This document shows, in pieces, positions 29,711-47,129 of a stretch of DNA of 64,000 bases (position 1 is its first letter; each line of letters opens with the position of its first letter). The notes under the pieces are model-generated. The model ran no database searches. It had not been told where the DNA came from and saw only the letters and a program-made list of their open reading frames with translations. The DNA comes from an uncultured Pseudomonadota bacterium (GTDB lineage: Bacteria > Oederibacteriota > Muellerivitia > Muellerivitales > Muellerivitaceae). The stretch is taken from positions 15,339 to 79,338 of the forward strand of contig CAWJKT010000018.1 of NCBI GenBank assembly GCA_963843375.1, given 5' to 3'. Position numbers and translations under genes: made by a program.

Positions 29711-29742
29711 AAACGGATGGGTATTGGGCGGCCCATCCGTTT
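29711..29742 (-). terminator. Intrinsic terminator of the small secreted protein gene
   Basis: AAACGGATGGG...CCCATCCGTTT with an upstream A run. Confidence 0.6.
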
Positions 29743-29762
29743 GGAAAGAGAATAGTGTGGAA

Positions 29763-29960: not shown

Positions 29961-30158
29961 TTTTATCTCTCCTTTTGGAATTTAAGAGCTTCGCGATTCT
30001 CTTAAAATTTGGACGCGCGGTTTCCGAAAAAGTGTCGTCGTTTTAGCATGAATCAAATTAGAAATATCCCGTCTTTTATACCTATTTCTTGACCATCCAT
30101 TTTTAAAATGGATATCATAGGAACCAGCCTCCCGTATAAACCGCTTGAAAGAGAAATT

Positions 30159-30899
30159 ATGGCCCTGCAACAAGAGCTGGAAAAAAGCGGTTCTTGGCTG
30201 TTCAGGTATCGATCTTTTGTCCCTCTTCTGGTCGTTCCTTTATGCGCCTTTTGTTTGTATTCTTCCAGCGATTTCACCCGCACTCATCTCAATAACGACG
30301 GATGGCAATTCGTTTGTTTGATCCTCTCTTTTATTGGTTTCGCGATTCGGGTCATCACCGTGGGGTATGCGGCCAGGGGAACTTCCGGGCGAAACACGAC
30401 ACGCCAAGTGGCGGATAGCTTGAACACGACTGGAATGTATTCCATTGTCCGAAATCCTTTGTATATCGGGAATTATTTAATTCTCTTGGGTTTTTTGGGG
30501 GTTTTTCAAAATCTGTGGCTGGTGTTATTAATCACGGCTCTTTATCTTCTTTTTTATGAGCGGATCATCATGGCGGAGGAATTGTTCTTAAGGCAGCGTT
30601 TTGGCAAAACCTTTGAGAAATGGGCCTATAAAACCCCCGCCTTTTTCCCCCGGTATTCCCAATGGAGTTCCTCCAAGAATTCTTTTTCCTGGAAAGAGGT
30701 TCTCTCTCGGGAATACAACGCTTTCTTCGTCATCACTACTTTTTTTTCAGTGGCCGATTTGATTTTTGAATCCAGTTCCGTCCACCAATGGACCATGAAG
30801 CCGGTTTGGATGGGTATCTTCATCACAGGGGTTGTGGTACTAATCGGTTTGCGAACCTTGAAACGCTCGACTCGGGCCCTGAAGGATGCGGGACGGTAA
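30159..30899 (+). CDS. ICMT/PEMT-family membrane methyltransferase, LmtA-like
   Basis: WLFRYRS, TSGRNT..QVADSLNTTGMYSIVRNPLYIGN, ERII..EE. Confidence 0.75.
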   Translation: MALQQELEKSGSWLFRYRSFVPLLVVPLCAFCLYSSSDFTRTHLNNDGWQFVCLILSFIGFAIRVITVGYAARGTSGRNTTRQVADSLNTTGMYSIVRNPLYIGNYLILLGFLGVFQNLWLVLLITALYLLFYERIIMAEELFLRQRFGKTFEKWAYKTPAFFPRYSQWSSSKNSFSWKEVLSREYNAFFVITTFFSVADLIFESSSVHQWTMKPVWMGIFITGVVVLIGLRTLKRSTRALKDAGR

Positions 30900-31845: not shown

Positions 31846-31877
31846 CCGTCCACGCCGGGGGGACCCGGTTTGGACGA
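31846..31877 (+). repeat. Dyad site 1
   Basis: CCGTCCACGCCG-GGGGGACC-CGGTTTGGACGA (G run possibly over-called). Confidence 0.75.
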
Positions 31878-32001
31878 TCTTTGACACGCCAAAAAGCCGT
31901 AAAAAGGCTATTTAAGCTGCCCACGATTGGGCCCTTGTCGCGAAATAAACAAACGATGTTCGACACTATAAATTGAGGGAAAAATAATTTTGGGGTGTCT
32001 T

Positions 32002-33093
32002 ATGAAAAGTTATCTAGGTTTTTTACTCGCGTTTTCCGCCTTTGGGATACTTAGTTTTGAGGGCTGTACAAAGACGTCAACGCTGACCGAACCCGTAGCC
32101 AGCGCTCTCTCCTGGAAAACCATGGGAAGCCCTTTCAGCACCGGAACGGTCTACTGGAACTCGATTTACGTTACCAACGGCACGCCCTATATCGTTTTCG
32201 CCCAACCTTCAAGCTACGACCTTTCAGTCGACGAATACACGGGTGGCTCCTGGGTACCTGTGGGCAGCCCGTCTTTTAGCCCCGAGGCCAGTTTCCAAAA
32301 TATCACGGTCTATAACGGTATGCCTTACGTGGGTTTTGAGCAGTCTACTAACGGCGGGGTGGCCTCGGTGATGGATTTAACGGGCGGAACGTGGAACTAC
32401 GTAGGGGGTGGGAACCTAACAACGACCCAAACCGTTTATGATTCCATGGCCATCGGGTCCGATGGAACGGTTTATATGGCCTTCGATGATTCCACGGGCA
32501 ACACCGCAGTCATGAGCAACAGCGGGGGCACCTGGAAACAATTGGGTGGTGACCTTTCCACCGGCGGTTCCAACTATGTTTGGATGGCCATGAATGGCAC
32601 CACGCCCTACGTGGCTTACCAAGACGAAGGCGCCGGAGGCAAGGCGACGGTCATGACCTGGAACGGAAGTTCTTGGACTCCCGTGGGCACGCCGGGCATT
32701 TCCCAGGGCGAGGCTTATGACGTGGTCCTCAGCGTCAGCAACGGCACACCCTATATTTCCTACCAGGACGGCAGCAACAACTTGGGCATCAGCGTGATGA
32801 AGTTCAACGGAAGTTCCTGGGCCTACTTGGGAGCACCGGGTTTTACTAATCAATGCGATTATCAGTCGATTTTCGTGGACAACGGAGTTCCCTATCTTGC
32901 GTACGAGGACAAGATTGCCGGAAGCGGAAAGGGCATCGTGGTGAAGTATATCTTATCGGCCTGGGTGACCGTAGGAAGCGCGGACTTTACGCCTGAAGTG
33001 ATGGAGGACGTTTCCCTCTACGTTGACAACGGCACGCCTTACGTAATCTACGACATTGGTCCTCCGGGTTTCCGGGTGATGGGCTACTACTAA
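32002..33093 (+). CDS. Lipoprotein with repeated beta-propeller-like units (GTPYVAY..D...W..VG)
   Basis: Lipobox-like FEGC; about seven ~47-aa repeats. Confidence 0.8.
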   Translation: MKSYLGFLLAFSAFGILSFEGCTKTSTLTEPVASALSWKTMGSPFSTGTVYWNSIYVTNGTPYIVFAQPSSYDLSVDEYTGGSWVPVGSPSFSPEASFQNITVYNGMPYVGFEQSTNGGVASVMDLTGGTWNYVGGGNLTTTQTVYDSMAIGSDGTVYMAFDDSTGNTAVMSNSGGTWKQLGGDLSTGGSNYVWMAMNGTTPYVAYQDEGAGGKATVMTWNGSSWTPVGTPGISQGEAYDVVLSVSNGTPYISYQDGSNNLGISVMKFNGSSWAYLGAPGFTNQCDYQSIFVDNGVPYLAYEDKIAGSGKGIVVKYILSAWVTVGSADFTPEVMEDVSLYVDNGTPYVIYDIGPPGFRVMGYY

Positions 33094-33152
33094 GAAAACA
33101 ACGTAGCCAATTCTCCACTTTTGGCGATGATGCGGTTCCGCTATTCTTTTGA

Positions 33153-33182
33153 TTGTTCAAAACGGGGGCCTAGAGTGGACAT
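33153..33182 (+). repeat. Dyad site 2
   Basis: TTGTTCAAAACG-GGGGCC-TAGAGTGGACAT. Confidence 0.7.
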
Positions 33183-33286
33183 GTAAAAAGAAAACTTTGA
33201 TGCTTATTTTTTCTTCGAATCCACTAGACTTTCTCATGGTCAAAAATAACTTTTAAAGAGTCAAACAATTCCTGAATAATCCGTAG

Positions 33287-33630
33287 CATCTACAAACCCT
33301 AGCCTTTGTAGCGTCAGCGTTTTTAGCAGGCTTGGTGGCGGTAGGTTATGCGGGTCTTTTTAAAATATTTGAGGGTTTTTATCACCAAATTTCAACGGCT
33401 CATCCCTTTGGATTTGGTTCTGGACCCCTCTTTGCCTGCTGGCTGGCTGGGCCATGGTTTATTTTCTTGCGACGGATGGTGTTGACGGACTTTTGTCTAT
33501 CAAAGTAGTGGAGAATTTGAGGAATGTTCGCCAGCAGGAGATCGAATTTTTCAAGCAGAACGGTCAAAAACAAATCACTCCCGACCAAGAGAGCCAGTTG
33601 ACGGCAATGTTGCAAAGGAATCCGATCTAA
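33287..33630 (+). pseudogene. Decayed membrane-protein fragment resembling a ClC channel N-terminus
   Basis: LAFVASAFLAGLVAVGYAGLF...HP (frameshift) LWIWFWTPLCLLAGW; no GSGIP or remainder. Confidence 0.4.
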
Positions 33631-33683
33631 ATAAAAATCATATTTAATGCCCGATCAGCGGCATTTCCAACATTCCGATTCTT

Positions 33684-33713
33684 CCCTCCGTAACGGGAGC
33701 CCGTTGCGGACAA
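33684..33713 (+). repeat. Dyad site 3 (degenerate)
   Basis: CCCTCCGTAACG-GGAGCC-CGTTGCGGACAA. Confidence 0.5.
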
Positions 33714-34059
33714 ATTTATTCGGGAAACCCCAACGGAATAATTCTAGGTTTAACCTTCCAGTTGTCGTTGGAACCGGTTCCATTTTAAAAAAATGAGCTC
33801 AGGTTTTTTTTACGGGATAAAAATTAAGATCGAAGTGGAAAGGAGTTGGCTGCAAAGGATATGATGCCAAGTAATTTCTGGACGATTTCGAAGCCCTAAT
33901 AAAAAAGAACCCCAGAGTACAGAATTTTCGTAGTAAGGTTTTTGACGCTGAAAAATAAATAAATTTCTTTCTGGCTTCCCGCACTACTTGACCTCTGGGG
34001 TAAAAAAAATTTAATTTAGAACATCTTAAAACGTTATTTTAAAAGAAAGGTCCCCGCCC

Positions 34060-36309
34060 TTGAAGCCGATCCTTCCTTCCGGCCCCGCCGGAACCCTTTT
34101 AAGGGTCTTCTTTCTTCTCTTGTCCGGTCTTTGGGTTTCCCAAGCGGTGGCTCAGACCACCGCCACCTGCGCCCAGTACGATACCATCAGCACGACCGGT
34201 TCCCCCGCCTACAACGTTCAGACAAATTATTGGAACGAAGGCACTTGCGCGGGCACCCAATGCGTGACCATCAACGACGCCACCGGGGCGTTCGGTGTCA
34301 CCGAGGCCACATTCAACTGCGGATCCACCGTGGCCAGCTATCCCTCCATTTATTATGGTTGCCACTTCGGCGATGCCAGCCCCGGCACCAATCTCCCCAT
34401 GCTGGTCAGCAACCTTACCTGTGTCACCTCCAGTTGGAATTTCACCCCTCCTGCGGACACGACGGGGGATTCCTTCGATATCGCCTATGACATCTGGTTC
34501 GCCCCCGCCAGCCAACCTACCTGCGCCGATGACAGTGGCGGTTACGACAATGGAGCGGAGCTGATGATTTGGTTGAACTATGTGGGCGACACGCCCCTGC
34601 CTACGGCTTCGGTGACCGTTGCCACTGGCATTTCCCTGGCCGGATATACATGGAACATCTATGAAACACCTTCGTCTACCCTCGGGTGGACTTACATGTC
34701 CTACCAAATTACCCCTAACGTCACCTCGGTTAGCAACTTGGATCTCTTGGACTTCTTTAAGGACGCCCTTTCCCGGGGTTTTATCGAAAATACTTGGTAT
34801 CTCGCCGCCGTCGAGGCCGGCGACGAGTTGAGGACGGGGGGGGTGCCTTTTGTCAGCAACTCCTACTCGGTGGCCGTCAATAGCGGTTGCACCGTCGTAC
34901 CCACCTCCACTCCCGGCAATACCTCCACGGCCACTCCGACCTTTACCTTCAGTTCCACTCCCTCCTCCACGGCCAGCGCCACGCCTACTTCAACGAAAAC
35001 CGTCACCAGCACCCCAACAAACATTTTTACGAACAGCCCGACGAGTACCCCGACCTCCACAGTGACGTATAGTTTGACGCCCACTCCTTCACGCACTGCC
35101 AGTGCCACGCCGACCTCGACGAAAGCTCCCACCAGCACCTCAACCGCCACGCAGACGGATAGTCCGACTCAAACTTCGACGGATTCGACGACCCCGACCG
35201 ATACCAACACCGCGACTGTTACGCCGTCCCTCACCGCTTCGGCTTCACCGACGCCAACTGCCACCAGTTCGCCCACTACAACTTCCACCGATAGCCCGAC
35301 CAATACGTCCACGAACACGGCAACCTCAACACCTACTTTCACTCCGACGAATAGTCCCGTGGCCACACCGACTCATACCATGACTAGCACGCCCACTCCG
35401 ACTCCGCCTACGACCTATACCGCTACGAATACACCCGTCTATACCGAAGCCAACACGGCGACCAGCACGGCAACAACGACTGCCACCAATACGGGCACGA
35501 ATACGGCAACGTATTCCGCGACAACAAGCCCCACCAAAACATCTACGGCGACCGCTACCAACTCTCAAACCAATATATCGACCGCCACCCCGACCAACAC
35601 AGCCACCAATAGTCTGACGGCCACCTCTACGAACAGTCCTACTTCAACCTCGACCCTTACCCCCACCGTCACCCCAACCCTTACGAACACCGAAACCAAC
35701 AGCCCGACCCAAACCCCAAGTAGCACGGAGACCCTTCCTCCCACCAACACCCTTACCAATAGCCCGACGGGCACTTTTACGTATTCGATGACCGCTTCGC
35801 CGTCCTTCACGGCTTCGCCTACGCAAACGGCTACCACGACGAACACGCCAACCGCGACAGCTTCGGCCACGCCATTCTTGACTCTCGCTGCGTCCAATAG
35901 CTCCACCTCCACGGCCGTCCCCACTTCCACTAATAGTCCTACGCTCACCAACTCACCGACGGTGACGAACAACGCTACAGTTTCGACCACACCCACAAAA
36001 TCCCCGACCCAAGTCTCGACGGGGGTTGTCATAGGAATTCCTTATCCCAATCCCGTGAAGGGTTCGGGCCCAGTGACCCTCCCGCTACAATTACCCCCCG
36101 GCTCCACGTTCGAATGGAGCGTTTTTACGACAGCCTTCCGCAAGGTCCTGGATATTCCCAATCCCATTTTGGGCGATAGCGCGGTCCTAGTCTGGAACTT
36201 GGACGATGCTTGGGGAAAACCGGTGGCCAGCGGTCTTTACTACCTGAGGGTCCAGGTCGCCGGTCCGGTCAAAACCTCCAAAATTCTGAAGGTTCTGGTG
36301 ATCCGCTAA
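34060..36309 (+). CDS. GH12 endoglucanase with Thr/Pro linker and T9SS-CTD-like tail
   Basis: NYWN, SYPSIYYGCHFG, AYDIWF, ELMIW nucleophile, WYL..VEAGDE; tail YPNP...VASGLYY...KVLVIR. Confidence 0.88.
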   Translation: MKPILPSGPAGTLLRVFFLLLSGLWVSQAVAQTTATCAQYDTISTTGSPAYNVQTNYWNEGTCAGTQCVTINDATGAFGVTEATFNCGSTVASYPSIYYGCHFGDASPGTNLPMLVSNLTCVTSSWNFTPPADTTGDSFDIAYDIWFAPASQPTCADDSGGYDNGAELMIWLNYVGDTPLPTASVTVATGISLAGYTWNIYETPSSTLGWTYMSYQITPNVTSVSNLDLLDFFKDALSRGFIENTWYLAAVEAGDELRTGGVPFVSNSYSVAVNSGCTVVPTSTPGNTSTATPTFTFSSTPSSTASATPTSTKTVTSTPTNIFTNSPTSTPTSTVTYSLTPTPSRTASATPTSTKAPTSTSTATQTDSPTQTSTDSTTPTDTNTATVTPSLTASASPTPTATSSPTTTSTDSPTNTSTNTATSTPTFTPTNSPVATPTHTMTSTPTPTPPTTYTATNTPVYTEANTATSTATTTATNTGTNTATYSATTSPTKTSTATATNSQTNISTATPTNTATNSLTATSTNSPTSTSTLTPTVTPTLTNTETNSPTQTPSSTETLPPTNTLTNSPTGTFTYSMTASPSFTASPTQTATTTNTPTATASATPFLTLAASNSSTSTAVPTSTNSPTLTNSPTVTNNATVSTTPTKSPTQVSTGVVIGIPYPNPVKGSGPVTLPLQLPPGSTFEWSVFTTAFRKVLDIPNPILGDSAVLVWNLDDAWGKPVASGLYYLRVQVAGPVKTSKILKVLVIR

Positions 36310-36372
36310 AGCAGTCCGCTGAAATGAAAATTTTTATCTGAAATAAAGTTCATTAAAAATCTTGAAAAGTGT

Positions 36373-36402
36373 TTGTCCACGACGGAGACTCAGATTGGAT
36401 GA
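36373..36402 (+). repeat. Dyad site 4
   Basis: TTGTCCACGACG-GAGACT-CAGATTGGATGA. Confidence 0.8.
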
Positions 36403-37038
36403 AAGTTTTCGGTAATTTGGATTTGAAAAGACGGTTATCTCGGGTTTGGATGTCAGGATAAAAAATTATGGTAATTGTCTCTTACTTCTTTTGGCGGCGG
36501 ACCTAGGTTACCCGTCACATTTAACCGTCCAGGAATCGATATCCGAGTCTCCCTAAGAAGTCAAATGAACCACGATTGGAAGGAGATTCGTCAAATTTGG
36601 GTCAATTTTGTCCGGGGTTTGAATTATTTTTGAAATTTTCGACTTAATCCATCAGACTTTTTCCTTGGCATTAAATATGCCCTGTAAAAGTGCCAATGTT
36701 AAAAATAGGCATTGGGTGAAAGAACTTTTATGATAACGGGGGTTCCAGTATTTCTGGGGCTAAACTATTTAAAAATCAATTTTTGACCTGATTAAATTTC
36801 AGATATTTATTTATGGAGTCTATGGGTGCCTTGTTCGCGGATTCTATTACGTGGTGGTGACCACCCCGGAGAGAAGGCGTTCCATCGGGAAACTGCTGAT
36901 TTTGAGATGAATCCCTAATAATAGACATAGATCGACTTCTTGAATTGGCTTGCGAGTAGACAAATATATTTCTTTAGTAAATATTTTATTTGAAATTAGT
37001 CAGGGCTGATTAAAAATCAAGCCAAATGAATATTTTTG

Positions 37039-37068
37039 TTGTACACGATGGGGACCCGTAATGGACAA
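37039..37068 (+). repeat. Dyad site 5
   Basis: TTGTACACGATG-GGGACC-CGTAATGGACAA. Confidence 0.85.
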
Positions 37069-37098
37069 TCAAACCTTTAAAATGAAAGAACGGTTTTC

Positions 37099-37596
37099 GT
37101 GAATTATCTAACCCTCTTTGACATAACAACCGTAGGGTATAAGTCCCTGCCTTCCTTAGGACCCGGCTTTATCATTTTCTGTGTTGGGTTGCTGGTTTTT
37201 TTCGCCAATGAAAAGTTAAAAAATAGGATTTTTGGACCGTTTTGGACTAAGTCAAGGTTAAGGATCTTTTCAATCATTTATACCGGTTTTGCGGCTCTTT
37301 TTTCTATTTCCGGATTAGTACATACCTACTCTGATTATTCCAGACTGAAAAGCGCATTTTTGAACAATCAGTGTGAAATAGTCGAGGGTGTGGTCACTCA
37401 ATTCGTACCCATGCCCGTTACAGGCCATGCCGATGAAAGTTTTACCGTAAACAATCATAGTTTTAGGTATTCAGATTACGAATTAACGGCGGGATTCAAT
37501 AATACACAATCCCATGGTGGGCCGATCAAAGCAGGCTTACAAGTTCGTATTCATTGTCTAGGGAACGAAATCGCAAAATTGGAAATCGCCAGATAA
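37099..37596 (+). CDS. Hypothetical membrane protein (2 TM plus beta domain)
   Basis: ORF fills the space between sites 5 and 6. Confidence 0.75.
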   Translation: MNYLTLFDITTVGYKSLPSLGPGFIIFCVGLLVFFANEKLKNRIFGPFWTKSRLRIFSIIYTGFAALFSISGLVHTYSDYSRLKSAFLNNQCEIVEGVVTQFVPMPVTGHADESFTVNNHSFRYSDYELTAGFNNTQSHGGPIKAGLQVRIHCLGNEIAKLEIAR

Positions 37597-37625
37597 AAGA
37601 AAACGTGAACAAACGGTTTTCGGGA

Positions 37626-37655
37626 TTGTCCACGGCGGGGACGCAGAAGGAACAA
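37626..37655 (+). repeat. Dyad site 6
   Basis: TTGTCCACGGCG-GGGACG-CAGAAGGAACAA. Confidence 0.8.
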
Positions 37656-37695
37656 TTGCAAAGAGATTAAATGAGGTTCTTGGGAGGGAGTATTT

Positions 37696-38523
37696 ATGAT
37701 TTTTTTGAAGTTTCCATTTCTTTGCCTAATTGCGGCATTGGGTATTTATTTTGTAAATTTTAAATATGGAATTTCACAAACAAATCCAACCCCAGAAATG
37801 AACGTTCCAATCACGATTCTGCAAAAACCTGTCCTGGTACGATTGAAACAAACAAAAGATGATGTTTTCTTAATCAGTGTTGATTTCGGAAAAGACCATT
37901 TTTCTTTCAAGTCCGAAGGCTATGACAATTCCTTGCCCGAATATTTAAAAACGTTCGGGTGGAAAGAAAATTATTTATTTGTTCATCAGTGGAATGGTTG
38001 TGGGAGTTGCCATAAAGGGGTTGTGGATCGGGTTTATAAAATCATAAACGGTCATCTGGTTGAATTGGGTGAAATACGGTCGCCCGAAGATGCGAAATCC
38101 CCTGGGGAAGAATATAACAATGGTTTATTTGAAGATTTGTATAACAAGTTTGAGGGCACTGATTTAACAGCGCATGTACATAGTCCCGATATGTTATTAG
38201 CGTTGAGGGAAAGTGAGGGAAAGTTGCTTGTCGATTTGCGTGAAACATGGTTAAAAAATGAAACTGAGTATTTAGAAACGAACGGCAAACTCGAAGCGTT
38301 TTCCACCCCGACTGGCAAAGAAAACGATCGACAAGAATCACCACTTTGGATGATTTTGGGAAACGGTGTTGTGGCCAAATATTGCAAAAAGAGCAAAGAG
38401 TTAAATAAAACAATGCAACAGGCCAAAAGGCTTTTAACGAACGAAGATATTAAAAAAATTAGATCTGTTTTGAATGAAGTTATTCCTGGAGAATTAAGTC
38501 CTAGAGAAGATGAAATGCCCTAA
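37696..38523 (+). CDS. Hypothetical exported protein
   Basis: GGGAG Shine-Dalgarno, N-terminal hydrophobic segment, AT-rich. Confidence 0.75.
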   Translation: MIFLKFPFLCLIAALGIYFVNFKYGISQTNPTPEMNVPITILQKPVLVRLKQTKDDVFLISVDFGKDHFSFKSEGYDNSLPEYLKTFGWKENYLFVHQWNGCGSCHKGVVDRVYKIINGHLVELGEIRSPEDAKSPGEEYNNGLFEDLYNKFEGTDLTAHVHSPDMLLALRESEGKLLVDLRETWLKNETEYLETNGKLEAFSTPTGKENDRQESPLWMILGNGVVAKYCKKSKELNKTMQQAKRLLTNEDIKKIRSVLNEVIPGELSPREDEMP

Positions 38524-38530
38524 TGGGTGG

Positions 38531-38560
38531 TTGTCCACGGCGGGGAACCGTCGTGGACAG
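38531..38560 (+). repeat. Dyad site 7
   Basis: TTGTCCACGGCG-GGGAAC-CGTCGTGGACAG. Confidence 0.85.
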
Positions 38561-38752
38561 GTAAAGTAAGATGATATTATGTGACTGCCACAAATCGACC
38601 TAATTTTTTGTATTAAAATTGTTTTTAGAGGTATGCCGGTATTTGTGCGATTTAAGGATAAAACAAGAAGTGATAATAATTTGTTAAATTTGTCCGAAGG
38701 GTCAAAAAGTCATTGGACTTTCTTGAAGAATTATTAGAATGTAAATATATGG

Positions 38753-41700
38753 TTGTCAGATATTTTTTTGGGGTCAATAGTGTTTTATAAAGTAGGTATA
38801 TCTTTCTTTAAAAAAAATATTTTTTTCCTTTCGTTTGCTTGTGCTATTTGGCTGTTTGGGCATGACGCCGCAGCTCAAACTTTCCCGCTACCCATCCCAA
38901 CCGTTTGTATTTGCTTGGACAGCGGGGATGGGGGGGATTTGATTGTCTCGGATGTGGCCAATCCCCAGGATGTGGGTTCCATCGCACCCGTGGTTAGCGT
39001 GAACCCCTATCCAGGTTGGTTTCCTGCCTGCGGAAATTCCAACTTTATTTCGGATAACACTGCGGGGTTAGTTACGCCTGCGACAAGTGAAGACACCAAC
39101 CAAATTGTTGTCCAAAGAACACTCAACCTTAGTTCCTTAACTGCCTCTCAACTGGCCCAAGTGACTTTCAGCCTTAGCGTCAAAGCAGACGACGCCATAA
39201 CGGTTATCGTGAATAACAATTCCGGCAGTCCGGCATTGAGCTGCGGGGGGGTGAGTTTACCGGCTTGTTTTCTCAACGGTTGCGACACGCTAACGGGCAC
39301 CAATAGCGGCGCTTTTCAAAACCAATTCACTGCCGGCTTTAACACTGTCGATTTCGTCATCCAGGATATTTACGGCGGCCATATCGCGGGGGATTTTGAG
39401 CTTTGCGCCTGTTATCCGGCGCCTTCGCCCACGGCCACCTTAACCCCCACCGAAACCTCAACCAACACCCAAACGAATACCGACACCTTGACCCCAACCA
39501 GTTCCACAACCTACACTCCCAGCCCGACGCCGACACTCACTCCCACTCCGACCGCAACCAACACCCAAACGAATACCGACACCTTGACACCGACCAGTTC
39601 CGCCACCTACACACCCAGCCTGACGCCGACCATCACTCTTACCCTTACCCCCACCGATACAGCCACGAATACGCCCACCTCAACTCCGCCGGGTTGCTAT
39701 AGCTTGTCGCAAGTCCTGCCTATCAATAAATCCGTGGCGCCCGCAAGGATCCAGGGACCTTCGGACGTGGCGGTAGACCCCACAACGGGGGACTTATTCA
39801 CCGTGGGTTCAGATAATGCGAAAGCCGGATTTTCTAACCAGATCGTGGTGAAGTCCGACCCTGCGGGGAACTTTATCATGTCCTGGGCCGTTCCCGGCGT
39901 GGCGATGGCGGCCCATCTAAGCACGGATTTGAATGGAAACGTTTATGTGGGATACCAAACGACGGCTGGGCGGAATTTCGTCCAAGAATACAGTTCCGTT
40001 GGAACGCCCATCGGCGGTCCTCTGGGCCCCTTCGGCACGATCGATCTCTTTATGGCGAACGACCCAGTTACCGGAGACCTCTATGTGCTGGATGGTTACC
40101 TGGTCTATCGTTATGGCCCGGGCAATGTATCCTTGGGCCCACCCTTCACCCTTTCCCGGACGTTATTCCGTTCGGGAGCAACCACCGGCATCGCCATCGA
40201 CGGATCCCAGAACATCTATATCGGGGACAACGGCACGCGAAGCGTGGTGGAGATCAGCGAAACGACAGGCCTCCTTGAAAAAACCATTTCCTTGCCGGTC
40301 GGTAGCGGAGTAGAGGACCTAGCTTGGGATCAGGCTACGAACCAACTTATCGTTGGTTATATCAACCATTTCCAGGCGATCGACAGCAATGGAAACTTGG
40401 CGGGCACCTTTGCGGGTTCCGGTCAATTCACCGATTTGACGGGAGTGGGAGTTGACCCCAACGGCTGTGTCCTGGCGACCGTCGACACGAGTAGGGACGT
40501 AGAACGTTGGTGCCCTTGCTACCTCCCAACGAAAACTCCAACCGATTCGCCTACCGCCACTCCAACCCTAACTCCGGAAGCCACCGCCTGTTTCAAATAC
40601 GTTTCGGTCCTGGGGGCCTTTGGCGGCGGGGCGGCTCCGGGAGACCTAGCACTGCCGTACACCGACACGGTGGACGGATCGGGCAATGTTTTTGTGCTTA
40701 ACGGTTCGGCGGGGAATAAAACCCTTATCACTAAATACAATTCCGCGGGGAAATATGTCCTTCAATGGACCGTCCCATTCAATGACGGACCGGGGGGCTT
40801 CATCGCCGCCAACAGCAAGGGCGATGTTTACCTAGTCTATCCAACAGGAGATGGCGTTTACTCGATCCAAGAATACGGCCCAACCGGTATGCCCCTCGGG
40901 GTCCCCTTCGGCCCCCTTGACAACGTAGCGGGTATCGCTATCGGCCCGGGCGATCGGCTGTATGTCCGAACCTTTCCCCCCACGAACGAAGGTCAAGGAG
41001 ATGTTTGGGTCTACAACTCCTCCAACGTCCTCTTGCCCGACAGTTCATTTACTTACCCCGGCCCAGGCGGCGGATTCGGGATCACCGTGGATCTTTCAGG
41101 TAATGTTTATCTTGCAGGTATTGAGAATGGAATGCGGGAATACAATGCCGGCGGGCAATTGATCAATCAATTCAAGGCGAATTCGGCCGTGCAAATCGCC
41201 TTTGACAATGTGACAAATGAGGTCCTGTCCACGGACGGCTCCAAGGTTTATATCTATAGCCCGGGCGGGCTATCCTTGGGATCTTTCGGAGTTGCCGGGA
41301 CGGGCCCCGGAAAGTTTATTTATGCCGACGCGGTCGCTGTGGACCAGTCCACTGGCTGCGCCTATGTAGTGGATCCGGACCAGCAAGTGGTGGAGAAGTG
41401 GTGCCCGTGCGGATCTGGCGGCACCTCAACAAACACCGCTACCAATTCGCCCACCTTCACTGTGAGCCAAACAAGGACGTCTACGGGCACTTCGACAGTT
41501 ACTTTCACCTTAACCTTGACAGGGACCTTTACAGCCACCCCAACTCCCACCCCTTCACCGATCCCTTCCAACACTCCAATAAGCTCGGCTACCTCCACGG
41601 CATTCTCGACGGCCACCGGTTCGCCCACTCCTAGCCCCACTCCGACGGAAACTCTGAGTCCCACGGGAACGGAGACCCCCACCCCGACAGAGACCAATAC

Positions 41701-43120
41701 CGCCACGAATACGGCGACCCTTTCCCCAACCCTTAGCCTTACCCCAACGGAATCCAATACGCAAACAAATTCAGCCACCCTTACCCCTACTTTTAGCGTT
41801 ACCCCGACGGCTTCCCCGACAACCACCGGTTCGGTCACCTCCACGGCAACCTTTACCCCAACCTTAAGCTCCACTTTAACGGCAACCTTGACTGCGACCA
41901 CTACTTCCACTTTCACCATAACTTCAACTGCGGCTTGCAAATGTGTCGGGTCATTTACTTCCTCCCGGGACGTGAACAATATCCTCTTTCCGGCTCCAGG
42001 AGAATTTTGTTATTTCGTCAATCTGGGTATAACTTTCTCAACATGTTCGGGAAATATCCCCGTTTCTTTCTATGCCACCAGTACGAACGGAGACATATAT
42101 ACTCCCAGCACTATATCGATCACCCTTTCCTCGGCCAATAATTTTACCTTCGAAGAACCGGTCACCTTTTGCGGACCACTGGTCCCGGGAAATGTCATCA
42201 CCATATTCGCCGCCTTTCCGGGAACTTGTTATGAGACCACCAATTTTGGAACCGAAACCGTCGTCGCCCCTACTCCTACTCCAACGATTACTTCCACCCC
42301 CAGCTGTAGCTGTTCTTCCTTTAACTTTAACTCTTGCGCGACGAGTGCAACCTCGATCGGTTCACAGTCGGGCTGCTACAAGGTTTTAGTGAATTATCAA
42401 TGGACAAGTTGCGCATTGCTCACCGGGTTCCCGGTTTCTTTCTTTGTGACCTCGGCCAGCGGCGATTACACCATCAGTCCGGATTCGGTTACTTTCGGCG
42501 CCTGTGGGGCTGTGCCCTGTGCGGGGGCGGTGGCGGATTTCCCCTTCACCATTTGTGGCCCGTCGTTAAGCGGAAATCCAGTGACCATCAATTTCCTCAA
42601 TCCCAGCGGAACCCTTTGCGACGGACCGGGTCAATGCGGACCTATCTTGTTGCCCACTTTTACCACCACTCCCACTGCCACGAAATTGCCGACTAACTCG
42701 CCAACCCCGACACCGACCTTTACACCCACCAGTACACCTATCGCGATGGCCATGGCTTCCCGGTCAGACTTCATACAAGCCTCAAGGTTGAATCCGAACT
42801 CCACCGGGAGCCCCTCCAACACTTCCGGGTTGTTGGGGAATGTGGCGGCCCTGCCCAACCTTTCAAGAGGGTTCGAGCCGATCAAGTTCGAGGTTATTCT
42901 GGGACATCCGGCCCAGTTAACTCTTATCATCTATAGTTTGTCTGGGGAGAACCTTTATTCGACAGTTTGGGAAGGTAACGCTGGAGTGAACCAATGGGTT
43001 TGGAATCTGGAAAACCGCTTTTCCCAACAAGTGGCCAGTGGACTTTATATTTATTTGATCGAGGCCAACGACGGGCAAATACGAGAATTGGAAACGGGAA
43101 AACTGGTTATCCTTCACTAG
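38753..43120 (+). CDS. Large secreted protein: beta-sandwich, two NHL-like beta-propellers, Thr-rich linkers, Cys-rich domains, T9SS-CTD-like tail
   Basis: [26 protein letters not shown] repeats; tail LPN...IYSLSGE...WNL...VASGLYIY...KLVILH. Confidence 0.8.
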
Positions 43121-43219
43121 AATGTTTAATGCAGGTTTTCTAATCTTCGGCTTACTGGAAACAAAATCATTTTTGAAAGGACAGGAACGCACTTGGGTTT
43201 ATTTGAGTAAGTAAATAAG

Positions 43220-43249
43220 TTATCCACGATGGGGAGCCGGATTGGACAA
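43220..43249 (+). repeat. Dyad site 8
   Basis: TTATCCACGATG-GGGAGC-CGGATTGGACAA. Confidence 0.85.
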
Positions 43250-43270
43250 GTTTCTTCGAGGGAGTATTAA

Positions 43271-43369
43271 ATGAAACGGTGTATTTTGACCGGTAGCCGG
43301 GTTCCGGTAAGGCGTCGATACTCCACGCCCTGAAGGCGGAAGGCTATCCGGCCATCAAGGAGGCATTAG
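43271..43369 (+). pseudogene. 5' remnant of an AAA_28-like P-loop ATPase
   Basis: MKRCILTGS(frameshift)PGSGKASILHALKAEGYPAIKEA. Confidence 0.5.
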
Positions 43370-44047
43370 GTGAAGCGTTGTTTCCTTTTGCTGTTCCTGG
43401 CCTGTTTTCAGGTGTCCCTCGCCTGGGGGCAGGCAGAGTATTCCCTCCCCAATTCCGGGCAAATCCAGGTAGGTTCGAATTATTTTGGACAATCGTTGGG
43501 CCTCTCCTATTCCCGGGATTTGGCCGGGCCCCTTTGGGCCGATTTCGCCCTGGAGACCCAAAGCATTTCTTTCCAGTCGGTCGCTGGCCAGACTTTTTTC
43601 GTGTTTAACAACAATTCCTACACTAATTTCAATATCGGCCTGGACGTCCATGATTTCGTCACAATGGACCTATCCTTCCACCGCTCTGATAAATGAGTTT
43701 TCCGTATCCTCAATTCGCTGGCGGTCGGCATCACCCATTTTGACATGACCTTCCACCTTTCCTTCAACGGGGCGGACCCTTCCGATACTTTCCAGGGGCA
43801 GAGGGACATTTCCGCTTTCGCGCTTTATACGGACCTTCACCTGCTCGATTTTTACCCGCCTCACGACAAACTCTTCTTTTCTCTGGGAATCAAGGGCAAT
43901 ACCGCCTTCCTTTCCAGCCCGCAAACGGTGAACGCCACGGATGGTTCGGGGGGAACCGCCTTTATTTCCTATTCCAGCGGGAACGGAGGGGCGATCATGT
44001 TTCCGGATTTGGAATTGTACCTAGGCCTTGGCTATGGTTTCGAATGA
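43370..44047 (+). CDS. Outer-membrane beta-barrel-like protein, frameshift near 43680
   Basis: Signal peptide; second ORF ends LYLGLGYGFE. Confidence 0.6.
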
Positions 44048-44076
44048 TCGGGAGTAAATACGGAAAGCGGAGGGGG

Positions 44077-44106
44077 CTGTCCACGGCGGGGACCCGGATT
44101 GTACAA
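44077..44106 (+). repeat. Dyad site 9
   Basis: CTGTCCACGGCG-GGGACC-CGGATTGTACAA. Confidence 0.85.
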
Positions 44107-44125
44107 AATTAACCGGAGATAAGAT

Positions 44126-44368
44126 TTGAAAATATTTAATAAATCCGTTCCTGTTCCAGTCTTAATAATTTTTTTAGGGTGGTTGGCTTTAATCTTTCAA
44201 GTATTTTTTTTCACGTTGGGCATGAGAATCGTTACCGATTGGGAAATTCGTTTTCTTTTATCCATGGGCATTGACCCGAAAGTTTTTTGGTGGATTTTCA
44301 TTTTTTTAGTTGTGGTAATAAGTCCATTCTTTCTGAAGTATTACAACGATATCGAGAAAAAGAAATAG
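44126..44368 (+). CDS. Small 2-TM membrane protein
   Basis: GGAG upstream of TTG start; fills the space between sites 9 and 10. Confidence 0.65.
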   Translation: MKIFNKSVPVPVLIIFLGWLALIFQVFFFTLGMRIVTDWEIRFLLSMGIDPKVFWWIFIFLVVVISPFFLKYYNDIEKKK

Positions 44369-44394
44369 TTGAGGTTTGGGGTGAAAGGTGGAGA

Positions 44395-44424
44395 TTGTTC
44401 GCGACGGGGACCCGGATTGGACAG
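44395..44424 (+). repeat. Dyad site 10
   Basis: TTGTTCGCGACG-GGGACC-CGGATTGGACAG. Confidence 0.85.
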
Positions 44425-44529
44425 CGTGCCAGGATCAAGGATGCAGCAGCCAGCAGGTGCGGTTCGATATGAACCAAGTCCTGACGGGGTAACCGCCCGA
44501 GGGCCCCGAAGTCAACCTCCGTGGCAAGG

Positions 44530-44589
44530 AGCAATATCGTTTTTTTTTTTTTTTTTTTTTTTTTTGTACACGTTCAGCTTCGTATTGCT
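44530..44589. other. Nanopore ligation-adapter scar marking a chimeric junction
   Basis: AGCAATATCG, T26, GTACACGTTCAGCTTCGTATTGCT versus adapter AGCAATACGT and TGTACTTCGTTCAGTTACGTATTGCT; abrupt GC change. Confidence 0.9.
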
Positions 44590-45405
44590 TACTTCCTCGT
44601 CGACGACCCGCGCTACGTCACCGGCCAGTTCAATGCGCACATGGCGAGCTGCCTCCTCCTGCAGGCCGACGAAGCTGTTTGGGCCGCAGACAAAGCGGCC
44701 GAAGGACGGCTCAAGGGCCTCATCACTTCGCCTATCCAACAAATCGAGGCAAAGGGCGTCGACCCGATCCGGCTCAAAAACTACGTCCGGCTCATCATGA
44801 CCTCGAACGAACCATGGGTCGTTCCGGCCGGTCGGGACGAACGCCGCTTCGCCGTGCTCGACGTCGACCCGCGTTGCGCCGGCAACCACGCCTATTTCGC
44901 CGAGATGGAGGCGGAGCTGCGCGACGGCGGCTATGCGGCGCTGCTCCATGACCTGCTCGCCTTCGACCTCGACAGCGTCAACCTCCGCGTCACCCCCAAG
45001 ACTGAGGCGCTCCTCTACCAGAAAGAGCGCACGCTCGACCCGATCAGCGCCTGGTGGCTCGATCGGCTCGTCGCCGGCCACACGACGCGCGCCGGCGACG
45101 CGTGGGAGCCGTACCTGCCCACGAAAACGCTGTTCGACGATTATCTCACGACGGCGGACAAGGTCGGCGTCAAGCGGAAGGCAGACGAGACCATTTTCGG
45201 CCAGGACCTGCGCAAGCTGATGCCGGGAATCGACAGGAAGAAGCGGATCATCGGGGCTGTTCGGACTTGGTGCTACCTAATCCCCTGTCTCGCCGAGTGC
45301 CGCGCCGCCTGGGATGAGGCCATGGGCCAGACCCGCGATTGGCCGCCGGAAGACGAAGACGAGCCGGATTGGCCTGGCGAGAGAGCGGGGTCGGCCGATT
45401 TTTGA
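44590..45405 (+). CDS. 5'-truncated phage primase-helicase C-terminal part (DUF5906/D5-like)
   Basis: GQFNAH...LLQADE...LKGLIT...IEAKG.D...IMTSN...ERRF. Confidence 0.8.
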   Translation, partial: YFLVDDPRYVTGQFNAHMASCLLLQADEAVWAADKAAEGRLKGLITSPIQQIEAKGVDPIRLKNYVRLIMTSNEPWVVPAGRDERRFAVLDVDPRCAGNHAYFAEMEAELRDGGYAALLHDLLAFDLDSVNLRVTPKTEALLYQKERTLDPISAWWLDRLVAGHTTRAGDAWEPYLPTKTLFDDYLTTADKVGVKRKADETIFGQDLRKLMPGIDRKKRIIGAVRTWCYLIPCLAECRAAWDEAMGQTRDWPPEDEDEPDWPGERAGSADF

Positions 45406-45417
45406 AAAACCCGACGC

Positions 45418-45668
45418 GCCCCACCTGCCCCACCTGCCGCGGAAGGTGGGGCGCGGAAAAAGGATAGACGAAACAACGATGTGCCCCACCTGCCCCACCT
45501 GCCCCACCTGTTTCCTCGCGCGTGCGCGCGAGCGTGCGCCCCAGGTAGGACTACCTTTTCCACTTTTTCTCAAAATAGGTGGGGCAGGTGGGGCAGGTGG
45601 GGCAACGCCTTTTCCGTCAACGGGTTGCACGCGCCCCACCTCAAACGGAAGGTGGGGCAAGGTGGGGC
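45418..45668. repeat. Iteron-like cluster, 12 copies of GCCCCACCT in both orientations (putative origin)
   Basis: Six forward and six reverse copies directly after the primase gene. Confidence 0.75.
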
Positions 45669-45882
45669 GCGGCCGGGGCGACTGCGCCCGAGAGGACCTA
45701 TCGACGATCGCGCCGCGGTATCGCGCTAGAACGCGCGCCACCGTGGCGCGCATTGGATATGCGCTTCAGTGTGAAGCGCATATCGCCAAGCTGCTCCGCC
45801 GTGAGGACGCCTGTCGGTCCAGGGGTTTGGGCCACGGTGGCGCAAACCCCGCCACGTGGGCGGTCACCCGCCGGTCGCCGCC

Positions 45883-46245
45883 GTGATCTCGGAAGACGCG
45901 CTCGCTCCCCGCGCTCGCGTCGCCGAGGTTGCGGCGGCGCTTTGCCTGTCGCCACGTGCGGTGCAGGCGATGGCGGCGCGCGGCGACTTGCCGGGCGCGG
46001 CGCAGATCGGCAAGCTATGGACGTTCGATCGAGAAAAGTTGCGGCGCTTCATCGCCGCCAAGGAGCGCGCATGCGCGAGCGAAACCTCTACCAGCGGGGC
46101 GGCATTTGGTGGTTGCGAGCCTCCGTCGACGGAGTCGAACGCCGCGAAAGTTTACGAACGCGCGATGTCAAGACTGCTCGGAGGATCCGGGACGCGCGGA
46201 TCGAGGCGTTCACCGCGGCTGCGTTCCGGGGCGAAAAGCGCGTAA
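45883..46245 (+). CDS. Excisionase-like HTH protein
   Basis: VAEVAAALCLSPRAVQAMAARGDLPGAAQIGKLWTF; overlaps the integrase start. Confidence 0.7.
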   Translation: MISEDALAPRARVAEVAAALCLSPRAVQAMAARGDLPGAAQIGKLWTFDREKLRRFIAAKERACASETSTSGAAFGGCEPPSTESNAAKVYERAMSRLLGGSGTRGSRRSPRLRSGAKSA

Positions 46246-47129
46246 GCTGGAAAGAGGCGGTCGCCGCCTGGGCTGAGCATGAGGCCGTCCAGATCGCGCC
46301 GTCGACGGCCAGGCGCTACGCGGTCAGCCTCCTGCAGTGCGAGCCGTTCCTCGAGTTCGTTCGCCGTCGACGAGATCGACGGAAAGTCCATCTCAGCGCT
46401 GATCGCCGGGCGACGGAAGCTCGGGGCGACCCCGGCGACGGTCCGCCGCGACCTGACGGCGGTCTCCCGGGTCCTCGAGCACGCCGAGGCCGAGGGCTGG
46501 CGGGAGGGCAACCCGACGCTGTCGAAGAGGAAGCTGCTCAAGGAGCGCCGCGACCCGATCGTCCTTCCCGAGCGGGCGGCGATCGAGGCCGTGATCGACG
46601 CAGCCACGCCCCGCTTCGGCGCGCTGATCCGCGCCGCCGAGCTCACCGGCGCACGCCAGGACGAGCTCGTGCGCGCGACTTGGCGGGCCTTCAACCCGCG
46701 CGCCGCCACGCTCGAGATCATCGGCAAGGGAAGGAAGCGCCGCACCATCCGCCTCGACGAAGCCGCGGCGGCACATTTTCGGCACAGCCGCGGACCCTCG
46801 GCGCCGAGCAGCGGATATTCTGCCGCGAGGGCGGCCTGCCGTTCGCCCAGGCCGCGAGCGACTTCACCCATCTGCGCCGCCAGGTCGAGGCCCAGGCCGA
46901 GCGAGAGGGCCAGCCTTTTCGCCGCTTCCGCTTTCATGACCTGCGCCATCTCTACGCCGTCGAGGCCCTCCGCCGAGGCGTCGGGATCTATGACCTGTCG
47001 AAGCATTTGGGGCACACGTCGGTGAAGACAACCGAGATCTATCTTGCCTTCCTGACCTCGGATGAGGCAGAACGAGCCAAGGCCTCGACGGCACAAATTC
47101 CGGCACAGTCACGGCGGTTCGCAGGCTGA
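46071..47129 (+). CDS. int: Tyrosine integrase, two frameshifts
   Basis: TGAR..EL, GKGRK.R, FHDLRH, LGHTSVKTTEIY. Confidence 0.9.
   Translation: MRERNLYQRGGIWWLRASVDGVERRESLRTRDVKTARRIRDARIEAFTAAAFRGEKRVSWKEAVAAWAEHEAVQIAPSTARRYAVSLLQCEPFLEFVRRRRDRRKVHLSADRRATEARGDPGDGPPRPDGGLPGPRARRGRGLAGGQPDAVEEEAAQGAPRPDRPSRAGGDRGRDRRSHAPLRRADPRRRAHRRTPGRARARDLAGLQPARRHARDHRQGKEAPHHPPRRSRGGTFSAQPRTLGAEQRIFCREGGLPFAQAASDFTHLRRQVEAQAEREGQPFRRFRFHDLRHLYAVEALRRGVGIYDLSKHLGHTSVKTTEIYLAFLTSDEAERAKASTAQIPAQSRRFAG

Follow-up and report, generated by a model that had tools for sequence, protein, structure and literature searches.

An array of apparently mobile gene cassettes bounded by 30-bp sites in an uncultured soil bacterium, with a short serine recombinase as candidate enzyme

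The DNA analysed here (the window) is a stretch of 64,000 nucleotides from the genome of an uncultured soil bacterium (G000). Its conserved chromosomal flank (25925..30899) carries, according to Pfam, a cyclase (-), an ABC transporter (-) and a PEMT-like methyltransferase (+). Positions 29007-30866 match G001:C4:48087-49952, in a genome of the same genus, at 78%, and beyond them synteny with that genome is gone. Between 31.8 and 44.4 kb follows an array of + strand genes separated by copies of a 30-bp site. Where the initial annotation had counted ten intergenic copies, we find seven that are clear (36373 to 44395) and three that are weak (31848, 33153 and 33684).

The array begins with a weak or degenerate site at 31848..31877 (+), which had been counted as site 1; it has nine mismatches to the consensus of the initial annotation and, read by eye, an extra central G. 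It is followed by an ORF of 367 aa with a lipoprotein-like N-terminus (31990..33093, +, GC 0.54), a weak site copy (33153..33182, +, score 17 of 22) and the remnant of a truncated cassette gene (33207..33465, +). This remnant corresponds to the 5' 260 bp of a 454-aa gene and is 81% identical to L013:1501-1760, from another genus, where the gene is intact and is followed by a site at L013:2896. The next site-like copy, probably the third of the initial annotation, is weak and scores better on the - strand (33684..33713, score 16 of 22). An ORF of 749 aa with a signal-like N-terminus (34060..36309, +, GC 0.58) leads to the site at 36373..36402 (+), found by both mismatch scan and score. The unit between this site and the one at 37039..37068 (+) holds no ORF of at least 60 aa. 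A membrane-like ORF of 165 aa (37099..37596, +, GC 0.40) comes next, then a site with the right arm ..AGAAGGAACAA (37626..37655, +), an ORF of 275 aa (37696..38523, +, GC 0.37) and a site with nearly perfect arms, the only one in the window that folds well (38531..38560, +). The largest cassette ORF, of 1455 aa and with a signal-like N-terminus (38753..43120, +, GC 0.54), precedes a site with a B-type right arm (43220..43249, +). A cassette with two small ORFs of 108 and 100 aa (43370..44047, +), another site with a B-type right arm (44077..44106, +) and a membrane-like ORF of 80 aa (44126..44368, +, GC 0.32) lead to the last site of the array (44395..44424, +).

Base composition differs between cassettes, as had been noticed before (window ORF GC 0.32 to 0.58). 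The earlier description of the cargo as unrelated and mostly envelope or secreted stands as far as the N-termini go, which are mostly hydrophobic and signal-like in the translations read by eye; none of the eight window cassette ORFs has a Pfam family above the cut-off.

Directly after the last site begins a truncated group II intron unit, represented by its first ~103 nt (44425..44527, +). It is identical at 131 of 134 nt to G000:C9:252484-252617, where Rfam finds RF02003 and RF00029, and the same intron-unit end recurs in two other genomes (G005 and G008), often at contig ends. The remainder of the window (44528..64000) is unrelated DNA of 65% GC outside the array, with a DUF5906 protein, an integrase (45579-47129), a tRNA-Ser (47164-47250) and a phage tail protein. 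This DNA has matches in none of 15 family genomes, and read depth is about zero at 44525-46928 in four runs that cover 29500-44524. The integrase, which would be the neighbouring recombinase that the initial annotation wished to identify, finds no support as the enzyme of the array.

From 63 good copies in the genome, the site is defined as a discrete 30-mer without conserved flanks and with the consensus TTGTCCACGACGGG-GA-CCCGTCGTGGACAA. The two arms and the asymmetric centre described earlier are retained, but the proposed 12-6-12 layout is better written as 14-2-14. The central GA is asymmetric and this dinucleotide is the sole asymmetry of perfect copies, so that a serine-type crossover fits at least as well as a 6-bp spacer. 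A second arm type, CCCGGATTGGACAA, is common as the right arm among window sites. With the consensus of the initial annotation, only three window sites are found at up to 3 mismatches (0 expected, 100 shuffles); at up to 9 mismatches, the + strand yields 31848, 33153, 36373, 37039, 37626, 38531, 43220, 44077 and 44395, together with the isolated 3393. Window sites were also scored on a 22-point scale. The isolated copy at 3393..3422, assigned to the - strand, is site-like, has B-type arms and lies outside the array.

The sites were said to lie 7-99 bp past stop codons, and the measured gaps fall in the same range: 59 nt for 33153, 63 for 36373, 29 for 37626, 7 for 38531, 99 for 43220, 29 for 44077 and 26 for 44395. 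The two exceptions named, sites 1 and 5 (31848 and 37039), have no ORF close upstream. The housekeeping block at 13-31 kb, described as free of sites, contains nothing scoring at least 16 of 22.

Across the genome, 55 of the 63 copies have a neighbour within 5 kb (mean 8.8 and maximum 20 for random placement, 500 trials), and the nearest neighbour has the same orientation in 53 of these 55. The upstream gene is co-oriented with the site in 54 of 63 cases, at a median stop-codon-to-site distance of 30.5 bp. The sites are neither scattered after housekeeping genes nor held at fixed promoter positions, two patterns that the initial annotation had set against its own reading. At least six cassette arrays are present in G000, with units of one or few genes, mostly co-oriented. 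Toxin-antitoxin pairs, GNAT acetyltransferases, small oxidoreductases and ORFans are frequent in their cargo, and its GC spans 0.31 to 0.61; this make-up is typical of cassette arrays. The site is found in 20 of 24 other searched genomes of the same family (candidate phylum FCPU426) and in none of the 15 genomes from eight other families, and the reversed-pattern control of the genome search gave 0.

Judged by comparison of genome sequences, the cassettes are mobile. Conserved gene order in relatives had been named as an argument against mobility; instead, homologous units stand in different arrays, orders and genera. For example, five units of G000 match same-genus G001 from site to site at 75-90%, in different arrays and with unrelated flanks. 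Individual cassettes of the C9 array have counterparts in many genera that match from one site to the next at 75-91%, compared to 68-70% for core DNA, and in G010:C55 two cassettes stand in swapped order. A unit of 12.2 kb is 98.9% identical between G000 and G001, compared to 78% for core DNA, and its right breakpoint falls inside a site, after position 20. At the locus of the window itself, G001 has its own sites and different cargo. Such site-to-site units in different arrays support the earlier proposal of a site-specific system, distinct from the classical integron, that captures and stacks genes. Within the window, a contig of run X2 departs inside the site 37626..37655, with a loose end at 37646 whose 30 nt are those of the site G000 C6:54280, from its right arm into its downstream flank, and loose ends 'before' 38531 occur in runs X2, X5 and X6.

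No pair among 309 sites shares both flanks. In pairs sharing only the upstream flank (n=29), left-arm mismatch at positions 8-11 is.03-.17 compared to a background of.10-.33, and the right arm is at background (.38-.62 vs.50-.58). The 45 pairs that have just the downstream flank in common display the reverse pattern, with.20-.31 at positions 20-23; about 30 of them form one cluster, the recombinase 3' end, and the linkage pairs of both kinds are few and not independent. The rare A19 goes with the downstream flank, and positions 20-30 segregate with it. Each cassette thus keeps the arms that adjoin it, the left arm of the site after it and the right arm of the site before it, which makes the crossover central. 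This linkage places it between positions 12 and 18, where a tyrosine recombinase with a 6-8 bp spacer would fit equally.

Just one recombinase is physically tied to the sites, and its gene lies on another contig than the window. This serine recombinase of 275-283 aa, without a zinc-ribbon and coiled-coil part, is the best candidate enzyme. It matches PF00239 (E 4e-21) and, at residues 186-272 of 280, PF07508 (E 2.5e-15). PF13408 (zinc ribbon and coiled coil) is absent in five of five short forms and present in four of four long relatives, and tblastn found no C-terminal remnant in G000. All 19 cluster representatives at 70-98% identity have this length of 275-283 aa, and dN/dS of 0.04-0.16 in all 27 evaluable of 36 pairs indicates purifying selection. 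Alignment columns R17, S19, S20, D88, R89 and R92, which we take to be the serine-recombinase active-site residues, are invariant. Identity to relatives of 506-509 aa is 57%. Assignment to the small serine recombinases (~185-200 aa, C-terminal HTH) was rejected on length and because PF07508 replaces the HTH.

Neighbourhood analysis covered 41 of 87 recombinase loci. A site lies 8-110 bp past the recombinase stop codon in all seven evaluable close relatives, and after the gene in none of 31 relatives at 63% identity or below, 22 of which are 471-555 aa long. Truncated copies or 3'-end remnants of the recombinase abut sites in G042 (three), G018 (two), G001 and G021. In the structure of LI integrase, the zinc-ribbon domain covers half-site bp 16-24 in attP and 11-19 in attB (PMC3783163). 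If the zinc ribbon reads the outer half-site in this manner, a recombinase domain alone would need only a short half-site.

Several observations count against this enzyme. Of 31 family genomes, only 5 have the short recombinase intact. Five genomes that are rich in sites (G023, G021, G005, G010 and G016) have no PF00239 match, and G018, with ~100 sites, has only short-form fragments and two unrelated small resolvases. Sites are nevertheless near-perfect in those genomes, which would be unexpected if they were enzyme-less relics. The short recombinase gene might be mere cargo, or a selfish unit lodging at array ends. In G000, the site adjoining the recombinase is split by a group II intron, which we also counted against the enzyme.

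On balance, we lean towards arrays of mobile cassettes on 30-bp duplex sites that are recombined by the short serine recombinase at the central GA. Units are excised, inserted and reshuffled by conservative site-specific recombination, as the genome comparisons show, and the crossover falls in the site centre, so that each arm remains with the cassette next to it, the left arm upstream and the right arm downstream. The enzyme would derive from large serine integrases via loss of the zinc-ribbon and coiled-coil part and would bind each short half-site via its recombinase domain alone, cutting at the central GA, whose asymmetry would set site polarity. Its gene closes one array on the 3' side, where it is convergent with the cassettes and directly followed by a site that may be the preferred insertion point, and the enzyme would act in trans on the remaining arrays. 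Most genomes of the family have arrays without an intact gene; these may hold integrase-less relics (CALIN-like), or the gene may have been lost in assembly and binning.

It is unlikely, though a serious competitor, that the same mobile arrays are served by a tyrosine recombinase or other enzyme acting in trans on a 12-6-12 site of the dif/lox/Xer type, with the short serine recombinase as cargo or selfish passenger. Besides sharing the crossover window, this explanation provides the other enzyme that site-rich genomes without a PF00239 match need if their arrays are active, and site-rich genomes have 6-7 tyrosine recombinases of ~370 aa compared to one each in two checked site-less genomes. 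However, a tRNA gene lies within 4 kb of 9 of 12 checked tyrosine-recombinase loci in G000, the usual setting of island integrases. Three further tyrosine recombinases lie side by side at C8:95.8-98.2 kb, apart from the arrays, and none stands at an array end. IntI is absent in G000 (TIGR02249 best 47.5 bits vs a cut-off of 265; genome 80% complete), and G001 (99% complete, 5 contigs) has only eight PF00589 matches, with lengths as in G000. The dif-like tyrosine recombinase suggested by the initial annotation finds no support.

Very improbable, and largely refuted already, is the idea that the 30-mers are REP-like or terminator-like hairpins of RNA or single-stranded DNA, possibly spread by a RAYT-type transposase, that gather in accessory islands and are not recombination sites. 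Perfect copies do form a strong hairpin (-13.7 kcal/mol, z -5.5), sites lie just past stop codons, and group II introns, which target hairpins, insert at them. Nevertheless, at each of the 14 arm pairs the Watson-Crick count is what independently varying arms would give (no covariation), arms are fully complementary in only 42 of 309 sites, and four of five tested window sites fold no better than shuffles. These results argue for duplex half-sites and against attC-like hairpins, REPs or terminators. For an intrinsic terminator (GC-rich hairpin and T-run), the T-run and a conserved 3' flank are missing, and the flank is A-rich. The sites are also clustered, not dispersed, homology between genomes begins and ends at them, and their arms assort with the flanks. 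A single Y1 transposase match (PF01797) was obtained; its 20.8 bits fall short of the cut-off (23), and it lies near none of the sites.

Operators of one transcription factor over an accessory-gene regulon have a slimmer chance still: a dyad-symmetric 30-mer does stand upstream of many genes and is kept across a family, but sites lie anywhere from -8 to 1116 bp before the following start (median 64), often leaving too little room for a promoter, the position is tied to the stop codon of the preceding gene and not to the following one, the sites bound units that move between arrays and genomes, and the polarity kept among neighbours is something a symmetric operator does not need. Least probable of all is a classical integron array without integrase (CALIN) and with unusually short attC sites, which the co-oriented cassettes, the integron-like cargo and a B-type arm reading ATTGGAC (6 of 7 letters of the attC box consensus GTTRRRY) would suit, but which conflicts with a length of 30 bp, too short for the R''-L''...L'-R' layout, with the missing folding constraint and IntI, and with positions 20-22 going with the downstream cassette, which places the crossover elsewhere than at G|TT of the R' box.

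We see about an even chance that the arrays represent a second, independent invention of the integron principle: a serine recombinase reduced to its catalytic and recombinase domains, one 30-bp duplex site with a polar central GA, and single-gene cassettes shuffled in several chromosomal arrays without attP/attB directionality control and exchanged among genera of an uncultured soil phylum. No description of such a system was found within the full-text literature collection searched. Gene-cassette platforms are known essentially from integrons, with a tyrosine integrase and folded attC; the arrays would show that a simple duplex site, probably served by another enzyme class, can support the same architecture. 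Tools keyed to IntI and attC would miss the system, which has neither, and the cassette gene pools of uncultured soil phyla would be undercounted. If true, a serine recombinase that acts on one minimal 30-bp site without a directionality factor would be useful for genome engineering, and would inform the question of how large serine integrases are controlled by their zinc-ribbon and coiled-coil part.

Parts of this architecture are found in several known systems. In the hix and gix sites of Hin and Gin, the crossover takes place in 2 bp between inverted half-sites, and the asymmetry of these 2 bp makes the site polar; here too two inverted half-sites flank a polar 2-bp centre. Hin and Gin, however, are invertases of ~190 aa with an HTH domain that need an enhancer and Fis and invert a single segment, whereas here arrays are built. 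In SCC/SCCmec elements, serine recombinases (CcrAB/CcrC) drive the tandem stacking of 'cassettes' between repeated sites, much as proposed here. SCC units measure tens of kb, bring full-length ccr genes of their own and target the end of one gene, rlmH. In the present system a unit often consists of a single gene, arrays are numerous, and the candidate enzyme is of a short form.

The pdif sites alternate in orientation and use host Xer tyrosine recombinases, in contrast to the co-orientation of 53 of 55 neighbouring sites here. Neither G000 nor G001 showed an Xer-type recombinase of ~300 aa, and nothing was found to link the sites to Xer. The likeness lies in short two-armed sites that bound shuffling accessory gene modules: on Acinetobacter plasmids, dif/pdif sites of ~28 bp for XerC/XerD delimit such modules (PMC6449649, PMC13141974). 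Large serine integrases (A118/LI, phiC31, Bxb1) share with our system the catalytic and recombinase domains of the candidate and a pseudo-palindromic site with a central dinucleotide; they differ in having a zinc-ribbon and coiled-coil part, missing in the candidate, that reads the outer half-site and determines attP x attB directionality, and in their attP/attB pairs of 40-50 bp, compared to 30-bp sites all of one kind (PMC3783163).

Integrons (sedentary chromosomal integrons and CALINs, with IntI, attI and attC) resemble the arrays in cassette organization: their cassettes are co-oriented and mostly poor in promoters, and each ends, on its 3' side, in one recombination site. Further likenesses are toxin-antitoxin, acetyltransferase and ORFan cargo, cassette order shuffled between relatives, and many arrays without a nearby enzyme gene. 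Group II introns are lodged at the sites in both systems, the parallel being the IIC introns at attC sites (IIC-attC). The differences concern the site, the crossover and the enzyme. A folded attC of 55-140 nt is replaced by a 30-bp duplex dyad without pairing constraint, and the crossover at G|TT of R', which keeps nearly the whole site upstream, by a central one that leaves positions 20-30 with the downstream flank. While integrons have the IntI tyrosine integrase, divergent at the 5' end with a Pc promoter, the candidate here is a serine recombinase, convergent at the 3' end, and there are several arrays per genome.

With the consensus proposed in the initial annotation and up to three mismatches, three sites are found in the window, where none is expected by chance. 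Looser matching brings the + strand count between 31848 and 44395 to nine, besides a lone copy at 3393, and a tenth, weak copy lies at 33684. The observation of a site array is confirmed: seven of the ten sites described are clear (36373, 37039, 37626, 38531, 43220, 44077 and 44395) and the other three are degenerate. The distance of 7-99 nt from stop codon to site is reproduced with the ORFs called here, and the reported difference in base composition between cassettes corresponds to a measured GC content of 0.32-0.58.

Based on an alignment of 63 good copies from the whole source genome (G000), the site is a discrete 30-mer, with flanks that lack conservation and the consensus TTGTCCACGACGGG-GA-CCCGTCGTGGACAA. 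A second type of arm, TTGTCCAATCCGGG (complement CCCGGATTGGACAA), is also used, and the two types occur in all four left/right pairings in this genome. The lone site-like 30-mer (3393-3422), far from the arrays, has arms of the second type on both sides and a differing centre. About 70 bp preceding some sites with a second-type right arm are alike (..TTTATTTGAATAAG..) despite different cassettes (window 43150-43249; contig C6, 47247-47349; contig C9, ~244750-244829). This stretch may be a conserved cassette tail or the end of a small shared ORF.

The dyad is a duplex site rather than a hairpin. Across 309 sites from ten genomes, Watson-Crick counts at each of the 14 arm pairs equal the expectation for independent arms (for example, 161 observed compared to 169.7 expected for pair 11-20), and the arms are fully complementary in only 42. 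The central GA is present in 297. Among five window sites folded, 38531 alone folds well (-13.7 kcal/mol), the others (36373, 37039, 43220 and 44077) folding no better than shuffles. The alignment of G000 copies contains no T-run and the genome no RAYT gene. On these grounds we exclude the REP, terminator, structured-RNA and attC readings. Rfam at gathering thresholds reports only a tRNA in the window, and no match at E<=1 in 44200-45000. The left arm is much more uniform than the right: CGAC occupies positions 8-11 in 189 of the 309 sites, GTCG positions 20-23 in 88.

The sites are strongly clustered. In G000, 55 of 63 lie no more than 5 kb from a neighbour (random placement: mean 8.8, maximum 20 in 500 trials), and 53 of these 55 share the orientation of the nearest neighbour. 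The gene upstream is co-oriented with the site in 54 of 63 cases, at a median stop codon-to-site distance of 30.5 bp. Arrays are found on contigs C6 (two), C9 (two), C10 and C18, the last being that of the window, which spans C18:15339-79338. Beyond G000, the site is present in 20 of the 24 other genomes of the family searched; a second family, represented by one genome, has a single copy with one mismatch. No match came from 15 genomes of eight more families of the phylum, from the viral contigs scanned or from a reversed-pattern control.

Genome comparisons show that the units move. Between G000 and a genome of the same genus (G001), five units align from site to site at 75-90% identity while lying in different arrays with unrelated neighbours. 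When a 17-kb piece of the C9 array was compared with 30 family genomes, single cassettes matched from site to site at 75-91% in many genera; for the core DNA adjoining the window, identity is 68-70% with those genera and 78% with G001. On contig C55 of another family member (G010), two cassettes are in reverse order relative to G000. At the window locus, synteny with G001 stops after a PEMT-like gene; beyond it, G001 carries sites of its own and other cargo. A gene that G010 has in full, with a site behind it, is cut down to its 5' end in window 33207-33465. No pair among the 309 sites has both flanks in common. Taken together, a cassette array is a highly probable reading of this locus.

A 12.2-kb block of 55-60% GC is found both in G000 (C9, 114033-126248) and in G001 (C1, 382841-395056). 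Its 98.9% overall identity (99.97% in the right 7 kb), compared to about 78% for core DNA, argues for a recent transfer. On the right it ends inside a site that both genomes share through position 20, including a rare left arm (ACACT) and the centre, and in which the right arms differ. The left end is not at a site, and GTCCACG lies a few nucleotides inside. Beside a site, 130 bp (C9, 113904-114033) are 87% identical to G001 (C4, 144453-144580), inverted relative to the array.

In site pairs sharing only the upstream flank (n=29), left arms agree and right arms are at background. In those sharing only the downstream flank (n=45, about 30 of them from one cluster and so not independent), right arms agree, and a rare A19 travels with this flank. 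From this arm-flank linkage and the breakpoint of the 12.2-kb unit, the exchange point can be placed between positions 12 and 18, which rules out a crossover of the integron type, close to the 3' end of the site. A reading of the contig at 37646 as evidence for a crossover to the right of position 18 was dropped since the aligner may have overrun a mismatch.

This crossover window is equally consistent with a tyrosine recombinase whose spacer is 6-8 bp. G000 has no IntI, and none of its 14 PF00589 matches is at an array end. Tyrosine recombinases near arrays were rejected: the sites 1.5-3.8 kb from three of them are only weak and degenerate, and most such genes adjoin tRNA genes (within 4 kb at 9 of 12 G000 loci checked). 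Paralogous tyrosine integrases of ~370 aa occur at C6:226593, C10:182882, C4:33545, C11:206771, C11:50020, C8:179897 and C1:37669, in every case with a tRNA gene no more than 4 kb away. G001 has integrases of equal lengths, and the two family members checked that lack the site have one each. At C8:95843-98242, genes for three tyrosine recombinases (465, 358 and 431 aa) lie side by side and resemble a recombinase-in-trio element. G001 (99% complete, 5 contigs) has eight PF00589 matches, none of XerC/XerD size (about 300 aa).

As the enzyme of the arrays we lean towards a short serine recombinase. In both G000 and G001, the gene for a protein of ~280 aa closes one array on its 3' side and runs convergently to the cassettes; the two copies of the protein are 77% identical. 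It consists of PF00239 and PF07508 and ends where its long relatives (506-559 aa, 47-57% identical) run on into PF13408. The zinc-ribbon half of these relatives has no match in G000, so a gene split by the array was rejected. The 19 cluster representatives at 70-98% identity all fall within 275-283 aa, and most lie on contigs below 5 kb. Because dN/dS is 0.04-0.16 (27 of 36 pairs, those with computable dS) and the columns that we take to be catalytic residues are invariant, the short form is a maintained protein rather than a dying fragment.

The analysis covered 41 of the 87 related loci: one set of 7 in full and the best 34 of 80 in another. A site lies 8-110 bp past the stop codon in all seven close relatives with enough downstream sequence; in three further ones the contig ends too soon after the stop codon. 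Among the analysed relatives at 63% identity or less, none of 31 has a site, and 22 are 471-555 aa long. A position-weight matrix of the site finds nothing of at least 12 bits near 11 long serine-integrase relatives. N-terminally truncated copies or bare 3' ends of the gene abut sites in several family genomes (G042, three; G018, two; G001; G021), each with a different cassette upstream, as would be expected if the junction between recombinase 3' end and site were the insertion point. Upstream of the gene, only ~260 bp and a ~50-bp promoter-proximal stretch are common to three genomes, and nothing there is shared with G000 or G001. There is no conserved partner gene, and no neighbour has a Pfam family. 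In the LI integrase structure (PMC3783163), it is the zinc-ribbon domain that recognises bp 16-24 or 11-19 of the half-site. Without this domain, the inner ~14 bp of each half-site should suffice, which would give a site of about 30 bp.

Against this assignment, an intact gene is found in only 5 of 31 family genomes. Five genomes with 13-35 site-pattern matches each (G023, G021, G005, G010 and G016) have no PF00239 match, and G018 has only fragments of the short form plus two unrelated small resolvases. Assembly may partly explain the absent gene, since arrays end many contigs and the gene is mostly on tiny contigs. Among assemblies of at most 30 contigs with at least 10 known sites, G001 has an intact gene and G012 and G021 are without; the gene is also intact in G042 and G045 (at most 30 contigs, sites uncounted).

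At the right end of the window array, the 103 nt past the last site (44425-44527) come from an ORF-less group II intron of which only the 5' part remains. They match, at 98% identity, the beginning of the copy at C9:252515-253296, which follows the site at C9:252485. The ORF-less intron begins 1-2 nt past a site, and an intron encoding a reverse transcriptase (C9, ~135163-137110) lies between positions 12 and 13 of the recombinase-proximal site, which it splits. The sites serve as targets of group II introns.

After 44527 the GC content rises to 65% for 19.5 kb (44528-64000), a stretch that encodes a DUF5906 primase-like protein, an integrase (45579-47129), tRNA-Ser(tga) (47164-47250) and a phage minor tail protein (51306-53399), and that has no match in 15 family genomes. 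The integrase belongs to this DNA and is not the enzyme of the array. Four public runs, drawn from three studies, cover the array and have almost no depth at 44525-46928, no more than a hint of a break between array and high-GC DNA. This DNA may be a strain-specific insertion (prophage) or a chimeric join at the repeated intron.

Loose contig ends in four public runs fall at the site edges 37646, 38531 and 44395. They are compatible with alternative junctions in the population, though some could stem from contigs of paralogous sites, and contigs cannot show absence. Four joints within the genes for 749-aa and 1455-aa proteins (35324-35455, 35324-41693, 35432-41692 and 39680-41693), with short sides of 21-25 nt, were rejected as cassette events and taken as internal repeats or other organisms.

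Pfam assigns no family above cut-off to any of the eight window cassette ORFs, most of which open with a signal-like hydrophobic stretch (translations read by eye). The other arrays of G000 carry many toxin-antitoxin genes (Phd/PIN, RelB/YafQ, HigB, PemK, VapB/PIN, BrnA), together with GNAT acetyltransferases, aldo-keto reductases, DoxX, YCII and RibD_C proteins, and large secreted NHL, malectin and glycoside-hydrolase proteins. One C6 array contains an IS30-like transposase (HTH_38 and rve; 48843-49742), adjoined by a 68-bp remnant (48615-48682) that resembles the recombinase 3' end plus a site.

A full-text literature search returned no description of serine-recombinase cassette arrays or of the 30-bp site. 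Integrons have group II introns that target attC, in parallel to the introns at these sites, and the usual cargo of integron arrays is also that of the other arrays of G000.
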